From Alphaproteobacteria bacterium (lineage in GTDB: Bacteria > Pseudomonadota > Alphaproteobacteria > Bin95), in assembly GCA_965205265.1 (NCBI GenBank), contig CBDBGH010000002.1, positions 1 through 43,206 on the forward strand: a DNA stretch of 43,206 bases, given 5' to 3'. The translations under genes were made by a program, and so were the position numbers. Shown in pieces: positions 23,604 to 27,787 of the stretch (the first letter of the stretch is position 1; the number at the start of each line of letters is the position of its first letter). Below the pieces are notes generated by a model, which was given only the letters and a program-made list of their open reading frames with translations, was not told the DNA's origin and ran no database searches.

Positions 23604-23632
23604 TTGACAAAATGTTGCAGATGATTTATAAT
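23604..23632 (+). promoter_or_regulatory. Consensus sigma70 promoter of the RiPP operon
   Basis: TTGACA (23604-09), N17, TATAAT (23627-32), within an AT-rich tract. Confidence 0.85.
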
Positions 23633-23680
23633 AAGGGAATGCTGGCAATTGGTCAGCATACCAACAGAAGGAGTTCTCCG

Positions 23681-23806
23681 ATGAAGAAGATCGTGATGTA
23701 CTCCAGCAGTGATCGTGTCCGGGGCCACTGGCAGTTGGGCGCGGCTATCTCGGCCGGCCGGAGCACCAGTAGTTCTAGTACCTGCTGCTGCAGCTGTAGC
23801 CGTTAG
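23681..23806 (+). CDS. RiPP (LAP/TOMM) precursor peptide, 41 aa: MKKIVMYSSSDRVRGHWQLGAAISAGRSTSSSSTCCCSCSR
   Basis: AAGGAG RBS at 23668-73; downstream of the promoter; Ser/Thr/Cys-only core; directly upstream of YcaO and SagB genes. Confidence 0.9.
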   Translation: MKKIVMYSSSDRVRGHWQLGAAISAGRSTSSSSTCCCSCSR

Positions 23807-23819
23807 GCGAGTTTGATGT

Positions 23820-23854
23820 GTGTGGCCGGCGGGGTCGTCGGCCACACTTTGTTT
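23820..23854 (+). terminator. Intrinsic terminator/attenuator between precursor and enzyme genes
   Basis: 12-bp stem GTGTGGCCGGCG/CGTCGGCCACAC with a GGGT loop, followed by TTTGTTT. Confidence 0.7.
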
Positions 23855-25590: not shown

Positions 25591-25597
25591 GGATGGC

Positions 25598-26422
25598 ATG
25601 AACCTGTCAAAATATATCACCGTTAACGGCTTCGAACCCGACCAGTTGGAAGAATGTACCGCCTTTCACGATACGACCAAGATTAAGCCATTCTCGTCCG
25701 TAAAGACCTTTCTGAGATCGTCCCAATACGTAGATTCGACGCGGGGCGTCGAAGAGACGAGCCGTAACTATCGCAACTACAACGCCCCATGGGAAGGCAT
25801 CAGCGATGCCAAACTCCCGTCGACCGGGTTTGACCAGATCAATGAGCGGCGACGCTCAACCAGAGAGTTTGACCCCGATGTGGCGTTTGACCGGTCCAAG
25901 CTGTTGTCGGCGTTGAAGTCCTGTTGCGATACCCGGCATGGGATCACGCAATATTCAGAAACAGCAGAACTTGGGTTTCGCGGATATGCGTCGGCAGGTG
26001 GGTTGTTTCCGGTCGACATCTACCTGTTGGAACGCAAAGGGGACAGTTTCATACTGCGCTACCTCAACCCCCGCACGTCACGTTTGTACGAACTTCGCAC
26101 GTTTGGTCCCGAGCATCACGCGATGCTAAGGCGTGCCCTGTGTGATGGCAAGCATGACCTAATCGACACGACACAGGGTGTGTTCATTCTGTCGGCGGTT
26201 TGGGAGCGGTCGATCGTGAAATATGGCCGCCAGGGGTATCGGTTCTCTGTCATGGAATTGGGGATTGTGGCTCACCACCTCAGCATGTGTCTGACGGCTA
26301 TGGACGTCGACAATCTCCATTGGGGAGGTGGGTTCGAGGATCTGGTCGGCGCGTTTGTTGGCATTGATCCGCGTAGCGAAGCCGTCGGGCACCTGCTTTG
26401 GTACGGAGTTCGCTATGCTTGA
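25598..26422 (+). CDS. SagB/McbC-type FMN-dependent azoline dehydrogenase, 274 aa
   Basis: FH..TK, RRSTREF, RGYASAGGLFP, the catalytic KY in KYGRQGYRF, ELG.VAHHL, GGGFED; GAGGA RBS. Confidence 0.92.
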   Translation: MNLSKYITVNGFEPDQLEECTAFHDTTKIKPFSSVKTFLRSSQYVDSTRGVEETSRNYRNYNAPWEGISDAKLPSTGFDQINERRRSTREFDPDVAFDRSKLLSALKSCCDTRHGITQYSETAELGFRGYASAGGLFPVDIYLLERKGDSFILRYLNPRTSRLYELRTFGPEHHAMLRRALCDGKHDLIDTTQGVFILSAVWERSIVKYGRQGYRFSVMELGIVAHHLSMCLTAMDVDNLHWGGGFEDLVGAFVGIDPRSEAVGHLLWYGVRYA

Positions 26423-27653
26423 AAGCCATCGCATCACCCAGAAATTCGTTCTCTATGGGTTGCAGATGCGGGACGGTGCGTGGTCTCCCGACTTGCGGGC
26501 CGCTGTGTCGCCCGTGCATCTGCAGGACCTTGATCGGGTTGCGTATGGGGTGGATTTGGCTGCCCGGGTGTCTCTGTTCACCTATGAAAACCCGTCACAG
26601 ATACAGGTCGACCTGCGGCCGTGTATCGAGGCATTACTGACCTTCACTGGCGTTGGCCACGACATCTGCATCTGCGAAACGCATGAGCCGACCCGCGAGC
26701 GATGCTTCCAGTTTGCGTCCGGGCTGTCCCTTGTGTTCGTGCACCAATGCTCCCTAAGGGCCCCATATGCTGGATTCCTGCATGAAGTACTGCACGGCTT
26801 TGGCCTGACCGGTGTGCCTGAAATCGACGAGGGAGTCGCCATGCTGTTTGAGGAGGCCGCCAATGGGGATATGCTAAGCTATACGCCGGAAATCGGGTTG
26901 AACATTGAATGGTGTCGGGGTCTTGCCCGACGTCAGGTCTCTCCTGCCAACGTCTACACCTTTGGATCAAGTTATTTCGCGGCCATAGTCGAGGAAAAGG
27001 GCATCGGCGCAGTTTGGTCCGAGCGGGAGCGGCTGCTCCGCCTTGCGGACGCCGAGGCCATCCGAGAACATATGTGGGCGCATTTGACTGGCGTGCGATC
27101 ACGTGATGCTCCGATGCCGGAAGGTCCGGTCACTTCCGAAACGCTGGACGAGTTGTATTTCAACGGCGATCTGTCGTCTTTTTCTGCCGGGAGTCTGATG
27201 CTGTTCGACGGCATTGACCCAACACAGCTACCTGTCTCGGAGCAGATGACGTTTGCGCGGATGGTGATCTATCTGTCCACGCTCGAAATCGAGGAAATCC
27301 CGGGCTCGGTCCAGTCGCTGTTACACGATGACGCCCGGACAGGGCTACACGGGCCGGTCGACAGCTTGATCGAAATCGCGCAGGCGATCTTCGCGGCTCG
27401 GCATAGCCAGTCCCGGCTCGCCCTGAAAAAGAACTCCAGGAAACTGGAGAGGCTTCTGGTGGCGGCATGTGACATCCCTGAAATCAGGGCGGATATTCTG
27501 CTGCAGCTGGTTCAGTTCCACAAATATGTGCCTGAAATTGCGGGCGGGGATCGGGTCAGGGCGTCTGGATACGCAGCCGAGCTGGCGACATTGCCCGGCA
27601 TGGAGCGGGTGGGCCAGCAAATGTATGATGCCTTGCGGGAGGTCTCGGCATGA
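26415..27653 (+). CDS. HExxH (gluzincin-like) metallopeptidase with a helical C-terminal domain, 412 aa; candidate RiPP maturation protease
   Basis: FLHEVLHG..IDEGVA; GGAG RBS; start overlaps the end of the dehydrogenase gene. Confidence 0.72.
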   Translation: MLESHRITQKFVLYGLQMRDGAWSPDLRAAVSPVHLQDLDRVAYGVDLAARVSLFTYENPSQIQVDLRPCIEALLTFTGVGHDICICETHEPTRERCFQFASGLSLVFVHQCSLRAPYAGFLHEVLHGFGLTGVPEIDEGVAMLFEEAANGDMLSYTPEIGLNIEWCRGLARRQVSPANVYTFGSSYFAAIVEEKGIGAVWSERERLLRLADAEAIREHMWAHLTGVRSRDAPMPEGPVTSETLDELYFNGDLSSFSAGSLMLFDGIDPTQLPVSEQMTFARMVIYLSTLEIEEIPGSVQSLLHDDARTGLHGPVDSLIEIAQAIFAARHSQSRLALKKNSRKLERLLVAACDIPEIRADILLQLVQFHKYVPEIAGGDRVRASGYAAELATLPGMERVGQQMYDALREVSA

Positions 27654-27787
27654 ACTCGGACCCGCCTCCCGTCAGCGTGCGGTCGGTCAGGTTGACCAGC
27701 GGGTCGGGGATCGCCCTGACCGTCCCTGATTGGTTCAACGCGCAGCCAGAAGCGAAACTCTTTGACAGCAGATCGAGTCGTATCTGA
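27650..27787 (+). pseudogene. Translationally coupled 45-aa ORF, probably a truncated fifth operon gene (ABC-ATPase-like start?)
   Basis: ATGA overlap and GGAGG RBS. MNSDPPPVSVRSVRLTSGSGIALTVPDW then degenerates where the high-GC backbone resumes. Confidence 0.45.

Follow-up and report, generated by a model that had tools for sequence, protein, structure and literature searches.

Does the plasmid in contig CBDBGH010000002.1 of an alphaproteobacterium (assembly GCA_965205265.1) carry a complete, minimal operon for an azole-containing peptide, or the remains of a larger one? The stretch analysed, here called the window, is 43,206 nt long and consists of a 28,299-bp circle read approximately 1.5 times, bases 1-300 being identical to bases 28300-28599. 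An initial annotation, made from the letters alone, had described the region 23604-27787 as an intact minimal operon with a precursor peptide, a YcaO protein carrying a RiPP (a peptide made by the ribosome and modified after translation) recognition element (RRE), a SagB dehydrogenase and an HExxH peptidase. In our assessment the island, at about 23.4-27.73 kb, is quite probably a recently degraded copy of a conserved seven-gene cluster (gene order A-C-D-B-X-E-F) of the linear azol(in)e-containing peptide/thiazole-oxazole-modified microcin (LAP/TOMM) type, and one that probably neither makes nor exports a product.

Four related loci were used throughout: L002, on a contig of a Rhodobacteraceae metagenome-assembled genome (MAG); L003, on a Vibrio contig; L005, on a Phaeobacter MAG contig; and L085, a 2.2-kb metagenome contig. 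L002 is the nearest locus in a genome, with a YcaO 78% identical to that of the plasmid. The features of the island are as follows.

23604-23632, forward strand: sigma-70-type promoter, TTGACA-N17-TATAAT, 12 of 12 consensus positions.
23681-23806, forward strand: precursor gene A, 41 aa, MKKIVMYSSSDRVRGHWQLGAAISAGRSTSSSSTCCCSCSR, with AAGGAG at 23668-23673, 7 nt 5' of the ATG.
23820-23857, forward strand: stem-loop and T-run 3' of the precursor gene; stem at 23820-23847 of 12 pairs (9 G-C), then TTTGTTT.
23875-25590, forward strand: 571-aa open reading frame (ORF) beginning with ATG; Pfam YcaO (PF02624), E 6.7e-46, 157.5 bits (cutoff 25.7).
23875-24288, forward strand: remnant of the McbB/TruD-like partner C, 138 codons, 59% identical to residues 5-142 of L002 C.
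24283-24294, forward strand: deletion junction, ...GAA GTG/ATG GAA CTG..., placed by codon comparison with L002.
24289-25590, forward strand: YcaO cyclodehydratase part (D), starting at the ancestral D start codon, which is M139 of the fusion.
25595-26422, forward strand: SagB/McbC-type flavin mononucleotide (FMN) dehydrogenase (B), 275 aa, beginning with ATG; Pfam Nitroreductase (PF00881), 33.8 bits (cutoff 23.5).
26415-27653, forward strand: protein X, 412 aa, beginning with ATG, HEVLH...DEG; gluzincin-like N-terminal and tetratricopeptide repeat (TPR)-like C-terminal domain.
27650-27787, forward strand: stub of an ATP-binding cassette (ABC) transporter ATPase gene, 45-aa ORF, about 27 homologous codons (27650-27730).

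On alignment with its relatives the 571-aa ORF, first annotated as an intact RRE-YcaO gene, is an in-frame deletion fusion of residues 1-138 of C to the YcaO start codon, and no natural RRE-YcaO. Residues 7-144 of the fusion align to residues 5-142 of L002 C, and residues 138-571 align to the L002 YcaO (433 aa) from its first codon, with 78% identity over 434 aa. In L002 the codons read ...GAA GTT TTG GAA ATC... within C and ...CTG ATG GAA TTG... at the start of D, which places the join at a TGGAA microhomology; this comparison demonstrates an illegitimate deletion of about 0.5 kb, after which codon 138 of C is followed, without a frameshift, by the start codon of D. Approximately 503 nt of L002-equivalent sequence are missing at the junction, corresponding to the rest of C with its CxxC...CxC zinc site. 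The remnant is left with the winged-helix RRE, the linker and the first strand-helix of the E1-like domain, and nothing beyond. The 138-aa N-terminal part had six matches among 5.8 billion proteins, namely itself and five C proteins of 295-308 aa (60-71% identity). The best 20 YcaO homologues (P0002-P0021, 35-79% identity), from a search that admitted lengths of 314-1000 aa, were 433-450 aa long and covered just 73-77% of the query. Using tblastn, C was detected in 26 of 81 related loci, always directly upstream of D and always past residue 200, while the same search on the plasmid gave a C match ending at residue 142. Typical sizes in the relatives are about 305 aa for C and about 435 aa for the YcaO D. 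The lack of a separate E1/C protein had been taken for a feature of the design, a view that does not survive the finding that all five other homologues of the N-terminal part are separate C proteins. Nor is the ORF a three-domain single chain of the TruD/LynD type, as domain 2 is absent and the relatives all split C and D.

The part of C that was lost can be described from the relatives, in which C is, on profile and model evidence, an E1-like partner with an RRE, of the McbB/TruD type. A profile of 16 C sequences matched TruD (6.8e-19), LynD (3.8e-15), MccB (3.6e-11), MusD (5.6e-9) and also McbB; with an earlier profile of four sequences the matches in the PDB were non-significant (TruD, E 0.21). 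The AlphaFold2 (AF2) model of L002 C (305 aa, mean predicted local distance difference test score (pLDDT) 83) has a winged-helix RRE at about residues 1-90, a linker helix, and then a Rossmann-like domain that opens with a strand (121-124) and a helix (128-139). In Foldseek this model matched TruD (3e-12, TM 0.65), LynD, MccB and McbB (5e-9). All 16 C proteins share the cysteines C201, C204 and C288, and C291 is nearly invariant; weak, sub-threshold matches of C to SagC and TIGR03882 fall within residues 177-297, the part deleted on the plasmid. A partner with an RRE and an adenylation-like domain, whether E1-like (C) or Ocin-ThiF-like (F), was found in the relatives and not on the plasmid. 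In the sections of the McbBCD structure paper drawn on here (PMC6395948), domain 2 of McbB forms half of the leader clamp and buries 2,191 Å2 against McbD, and its adaptor helix contacts the nucleotide bound in McbD. From these roles we infer, by analogy, that the plasmid fusion is a badly impaired cyclodehydratase.

Comparison with the relatives also demonstrates a second break, at 27730, which removed the exporter except for about 27 codons. The stub matches the N-terminus of the L002 ATPase (BLASTP, E 8e-5) over 26 residues, with the homology stopping before Walker A, a motif that the stub lacks, and its start overlaps the stop codon of X in the same ATGA arrangement as in the ATPase genes of the relatives. 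X is followed by an ATPase in all four X-holding loci (L002, L003, L005 and L085), with a full permease in three and one cut by an insertion sequence (IS) in L002. No further ATPase or permease was found elsewhere on the plasmid by tblastn with the relatives' queries. A cluster-encoded ABC-2 exporter, consisting of a Walker-motif ATPase and a permease, is therefore something the plasmid lacks and the relatives have in both parts. With the E1-like domain deleted and the exporter of four out of four relatives reduced to a stub, the island is unlikely to be an intact minimal operon, and equally unlikely to be the reason for plasmid maintenance, the role that had been suggested for it.

The age of these deletions was judged from copies of the island in other sequencing runs. 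The region 23600-27800 was nearly whole (0.92-1.00 of sampled words) in nine runs of five studies, with no RNA data set listed among the runs that contain it, and contigs of four of these runs (X2, X4, X7 and X10) were compared over 21000-30000. The junction was bridged by contigs of 6,652 nt in X2 (3 differences), 7,222 nt in X4 (0 differences) and 260 nt in X10 (0 differences), and the deleted form was also found under other organism labels. Run X7, a sponge metagenome, gave two records. The first matches 23148-24294 and is followed by 73 unlike letters; the second begins with 479 unlike letters and then matches 24287-27730 with 3 differences in 3.4 kb (>99.9% identical). Assuming the usual 30-letter overlap between the two records, X7 has some 0.52 kb of additional sequence, and the comparison with L002 puts the missing sequence at about 0.5 kb. 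After 27730 the X7 record leaves the plasmid sequence, and its 30-letter end past that position, translated by hand in the frame of the stub, reads GPVSFHGGRF, similar to the ...EFSQGRF... before Walker A of the L002 ATPase. X7 would thus hold an essentially identical, undeleted cluster, the missing segment of C being judged from position and length. If so, both deletions are very recent, which would account for the pristine look of the surviving genes. In run X4, contig depth halves after 27612 (41 before, about 21 beyond) and there are contig breaks at 27583-27612 and at 27727-27756, which suggests a second variant in that run sharing 21000-27612 and then diverging.

What survives intact on the plasmid is the promoter, the precursor, the hairpin, the core of the YcaO, the dehydrogenase and X. 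The promoter had been described as perfect, and it is the sole 12/12 site in 23000-28300, where six promoter-like sites were counted against 2.2 expected. In the near-identical and apparently undeleted X7 copy the -35 hexamer is TTGATA (C>T at 23608), so the perfect promoter is specific to the deleted form.

The 41-aa, Shine-Dalgarno (SD)-led ORF rich in Ser, Thr and Cys is a true precursor gene, as proposed, with homologues in L002, L003 and L005 that share its leader motif, YSS(S/G)DR...(S/T)AGR, kept in four of four sequences. It consists of a 27-aa leader ending in SAGR and a 14-aa core, STSSSSTCCCSCSR, in which 13 of 14 residues are Ser, Thr or Cys and the last is Arg, the short leader and Cys/Ser/Thr-rich core of a LAP precursor. 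All four cores are 12-14 residues long and nearly all Ser, Thr and Cys; the L002 precursor is almost identical to that of the plasmid, its core ending in CCCCCSR. The precursor matched no NCBIfam or Pfam model, NCBIfam including its LAP models (E <= 1).

The hairpin behind the precursor gene has a folding energy of -34 kcal/mol (z -5.1; none of 200 shuffles as stable). A stem of different sequence, 11-15 bp long, occupies the equivalent position in L002 (z -5.1) and in L005 (15 bp, z -1.4, with 14 of 200 shuffles equally stable); L003 has no stem-loop at that place, and an IS lies downstream of its precursor. Annotated at first as a terminator, the element does have a strong stem and a T-run, and its likely role is that of a partial terminator or messenger RNA (mRNA)-stabilising structure. 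It would fit an attenuator or stabilising element that gives a high precursor-to-enzyme ratio.

The YcaO part keeps 68 of the 69 columns invariant in 21 homologues and ends in ...DPPHAFP, in agreement with the Pro-rich C-terminus reported for it; its score with the SagD subfamily model TIGR03604 (197.6 bits) is under the cutoff of 219.25. The dehydrogenase B is likewise of the SagB/McbC type first assigned, with the sequence VKYGRQGYRF (KYG..GYR motif), 26 of 27 columns invariant in eight homologues, 83% identity to L002 B, and a TIGR03605 SagB score of 65.6 bits, under the cutoff of 78.4. With precursor, YcaO and dehydrogenase all present, the assignment of the island to the YcaO/SagB azole-peptide clusters stands. 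What had been called three tightly spaced intact genes are indeed closely spaced and open (571, 275 and 412 aa), the first of them being the deletion fusion.

Protein X retains all 22 invariant columns of its alignment, including H124, E125, H128 and D139-E140-G141 (HExxH-x10-DEG), which are invariant in 10 of 10 sequences. It belongs to no Pfam or NCBIfam family, with no Pfam match at E <= 1, Peptidase_MA_2 included, and few homologues were found: a set of 1.84 billion representatives yielded 23 clusters, none with a Pfam family. The AF2 model (pLDDT 90) has two domains. Residues 1-231 were compared using VIA-align and resembled Grimontia collagenase (Z 8.7), lugdulysin (Z 8.3) and M1 and M61 enzymes (Z 7.4-8.1), and residues 238-413 resembled TPR proteins, including the peptide-binding NprR and Rap (Z 9.0-10.3), all of these being middling values. 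The top Foldseek rows were M1 aminopeptidases and leukotriene A4 (LTA4) hydrolase, with a best E of 7e-3 and none at or below 0.001, and language-model neighbours were Peptidase_MA_2 proteins with or without TPRs (score 0.87), useful as leads only. Of the HExxH peptidase or gluzincin originally proposed, the HEVLH...DEG motif holds without exception, while the likeness of fold, to M9, M30, M1 and M61 peptidases, is middling (Z 7.4-8.7) and a curated family is lacking. On motif and model, the best reading of X is a zinc-dependent peptidase that removes the leader and has a TPR arm for binding peptide, with a predicted cleavage site after (S/T)AGR. In the part of a 2023 review available to us (PMC10885120) the only metalloproteases given for LAPs are M103 TldD/E; a LAP cluster with a gluzincin gene of its own would be out of the ordinary.

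The intact form of the cluster is seen in the relatives. In L002 the order is precursor, C (305 aa), D (433 aa), B, X, the ABC ATPase E (311 aa) and the ABC-2 permease F. All seven genes recur in L003 and L005, whose permeases are 254 and 252 aa long. L085, the only relative from a metagenome scan with the X alignment, has X, then the ATPase, then the permease; a metagenome scan with the fusion as query gave no relative. YcaO homologues were also found under the names Aeromonas, V. mimicus and V. cholerae. The intact family is often bracketed or interrupted by IS elements (L002, L003 and L005). In L002, identical 471-aa transposase ORFs in direct orientation (4221-5636 and 11630-13045), which we take to be of the IS66 type, bracket the whole cluster like a composite transposon, and the bracketing element cuts the permease to 140 aa. 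An IS lies between precursor and C in L003, and a transposase gene lies upstream in L005. More distant relatives (L006-L025, YcaO identity 31-35%; Alkalimonas, Lacimicrobium, Rhodocista, Duganella, Rugamonas and others) retain C-D-B and the ABC ATPase; B and the ATPase are separated by about 1.3-1.5 kb (e.g. 8136-9496 in L006), the size of a gene, in which tblastn found no match to X. A strongly diverged X may be encoded there, or some other protease.

No description of the family was found in the titles and abstract openings listed by literature searches on YcaO proteins and linear azole peptides, and the list of E1-partnered YcaO clusters that accompanies PMC7136475 may already include it. 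We lean towards regarding A-C-D-B-X-E-F as a LAP class of marine Alpha- and Gammaproteobacteria that is carried by IS elements and plasmids and is so far undescribed, with a nearly fully heterocyclised 12-14-mer as its product and its own gluzincin-TPR leader peptidase. The candidate new azole-peptide family first suggested for the plasmid genes would then be represented by the seven-gene relatives, which look uncharacterised, and the plasmid gene set is a degraded copy of it. The statement that neither precursor nor gene set could be recognised agrees with our searches, since the precursor and the HExxH protein both fall outside every curated family.

By homology to known systems, the RRE of C in an intact cluster would bind the 27-aa leader, and the C-YcaO complex would use ATP to cyclodehydrate Cys, Ser and Thr of the 12-14-residue core. 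The SagB-type FMN enzyme would then oxidise the azolines to azoles, X would take off the leader, probably after (S/T)AGR, and the ABC-2 exporter (ATPase and permease) would export the product and probably protect the producer. On the plasmid, the cluster may be transcribed, its cyclodehydratase would be badly impaired and export by a pump of its own would be impossible; the remnant most likely rides on a successful plasmid.

Several observations weigh against degradation, and some of them favour the first alternative, which we consider unlikely: that the island is a functional minimal operon in which the tethered RRE-YcaO still cyclodehydrates, B oxidises and X cleaves the leader, with a product that is intracellular or leaves via an unrelated host pump. 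The surviving ORFs are open and keep their conserved columns (68/69 in the YcaO, 26/27 in the dehydrogenase, 22/22 in X), and promoter and SD sequence are perfect. Because the reading frame runs through the fusion, translation of D, B and X is still possible. The same deleted form occurs in several runs, in at least three other studies, and must therefore have lasted or been passed on. What is left of C includes the RRE, now joined to the YcaO, and a YcaO of this class keeps weak activity without its C protein. In addition, the portion of PMC7136475 at hand describes partner-free, standalone YcaOs in bottromycin biosynthesis. The unlike X7 stretches of 479 and 73 letters, moreover, are identified as C by position and length only. 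With no more than 0-3 base differences between copies over 6.6 kb, the open state of the ORFs carries little weight for either side. Against a functional operon, the E1-like domain is kept in all 26 loci that have C, and all five N-terminal homologues are 295-308 aa long. In McbBCD, as described in the sections cited above (PMC6395948), domain 2 makes the clamp, the contact to D and the contact to the nucleotide. The exporter present in four of four related loci is deleted, and a near-identical undeleted form exists, so that the deletions would be very recent.

A bolder form of this alternative is that the deletion itself made a working, E1-less minimal cyclodehydratase, kept in several strains for an intracellular azole peptide. 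We hold this to be improbable; if true, the E1-like domain of C-dependent YcaOs would be dispensable once the leader is held in cis.

Less probable still is complementation in trans, with the functions that the plasmid remnant lacks coming from the chromosome, for example from a second YcaO cluster there that encodes a fused winged helix-turn-helix/E1-like/YcaO protein and an ABC transporter. The C profile does have a match (E 1.1e-7) at 4203804-4204250 of chromosome contig 3; the 815-aa ORF around it has a Pfam YcaO domain (1.4e-94) and a winged-helix domain, and a 980-aa ABC transporter is encoded nearby. This match is the sole other one of the C profile in the genome, and it lies within an unrelated fused YcaO protein: the chromosomal E1-like domain is covalently part of a very divergent YcaO that the plasmid YcaO query did not match at E <= 0.001. 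There is no link between the two loci, and the RRE-leader and C-D contacts are system-specific in the solved complexes, as far as the same sections of PMC6395948 describe them. The second cluster occupies 4196000-4212000 of contig 3 around the 815-aa protein and also encodes a transposase, a protein of 798 aa that includes a fatty-acid-desaturase domain, and another of 443 aa that belongs to no family. An assembly artefact, with fusion and stub as mis-joins, can be dismissed, since contigs of X2, X4 and X10 cross 24283-24294 without a gap and nothing was found in its favour.

Three further features belong to the plasmid setting of the island.

23281-23379, forward strand: fragment of a serine-recombinase gene with an in-frame stop, 99 nt, 89% identical to 11843-11941 of the intact resolvase gene.
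23378-23403: perfect inverted copy, 26 nt, of 27563-27588, adjoining the recombinase fragment.
15445-19734: Tn3-family element with 58-nt inverted ends and with transposase and resolvase inside.

The source of the inverted 26-mer, 27563-27588, is native coding sequence of X (...SGYAAELA...) that is conserved in X homologues, and a perfect inverted copy of this length is far above chance expectation in 5.4 kb. Together, the recombinase fragment and the 26-mer are rearrangement scars at the left edge of the island. Two weaker inverted repeats (I5 and I17) were treated as chance, their order being inconsistent with that of repeat I1. With all cluster proteins as tblastn queries, the flanks 23380-23680 and 27700-27830 gave noise only (best E 0.033). 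The GC content is 0.535-0.568 over 23-27 kb and 0.58-0.80 in the rest of the plasmid, which bears out the lower-GC island reported initially. The same cannot be said of the otherwise decaying plasmid, where no decay is visible: the plasmid is mobilisable, and its MobA/MobL relaxase-helicase, RepA initiator (Pfam RPA), serine resolvase and ParA, along with the Tn3-family transposase, are each full-length by Pfam. Blastn of 23500-27800 against PLSDB gave no match, and the cluster YcaO was not found in 60 relatives searched, 16 of them of the same genus (E <= 1e-20).

Elsewhere on the plasmid, internal repeats of 50-293 nt with 80-96% identity (families D1-D4, D7 and D8) occur at 5649-13132 (second copy 33948-41431), and 61-nt inverted repeats at 9668-9728 and 13777-13837 bracket the rep-resolvase region. 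A 63-nt inverted repeat, 90% complementary (3218-3280 and 28032-28094), brackets the relaxase segment, which has a GC content of 0.78-0.80 and may be a separately acquired module.

For genome mining, the island illustrates that what looks like a minimal RiPP operon, complete with a tidy RRE-YcaO fusion, can owe its form to a recent deletion, which only comparison with relatives reveals. The apparently undeleted form in the sponge metagenome and the domain-2-less fusion in isolates make a natural matched pair with which the contribution of the E1-like domain could be tested. Of greater interest is the intact family, as seen in the Rhodobacteraceae, Phaeobacter and Vibrio loci, with a very unusual core of almost nothing but Ser/Thr/Cys and an orphan peptidase family.

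Among known systems, the intact relatives resemble microcin B17 (mcbABCDEFG; McbBCD, PDB 6GOS and 6GRI) in having, besides precursor and YcaO, an FMN dehydrogenase, an ABC exporter and a separate E1-like partner that bears zinc and has an RRE at its N-terminus. They differ in the order A-C-D-B and in a core of 12-14 residues, almost all Ser, Thr and Cys, whereas the microcin B17 core is Gly-rich. The family encodes its own gluzincin-TPR protein, while microcin B17 uses the chromosomal TldD/E, according to the part of PMC10885120 cited above. No McbG-like gene was seen in the family loci read, and the plasmid additionally lacks the E1-like domain and the exporter. The cyanobactin heterocyclases TruD, LynD and PatD (PDB 4BS9 and 4V1T) are the best structural and profile matches of C and carry RRE, E1-like domain and YcaO on one chain. 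These natural fusions have three domains and about 750-780 aa, compared with a plasmid chain of 571 aa without domain 2, and the family cluster has neither the macrocyclase nor the subtilisin-like proteases of cyanobactin pathways. Streptolysin S-like and plantazolicin-type LAPs likewise have runs of Cys, Ser and Thr able to give contiguous azoles, and an ABC-2-type exporter; their clusters have a CAAX-type protease where the family has the gluzincin-TPR protein. The family core is far shorter than that of streptolysin S-like peptides, and its precursor matches no NCBIfam model (E <= 1). X itself resembles the AplP-like M1 zinc peptidases that cut off the leaders of class III/IV lanthipeptides; both are gluzincins with HExxH...E for which a part in removing the leader is known or proposed. 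X differs from these in lacking a Pfam match, in its weak fold scores (E 7e-3, Z 7.4-8.7), and in having a TPR-like C-terminal domain and a place in a LAP cluster.

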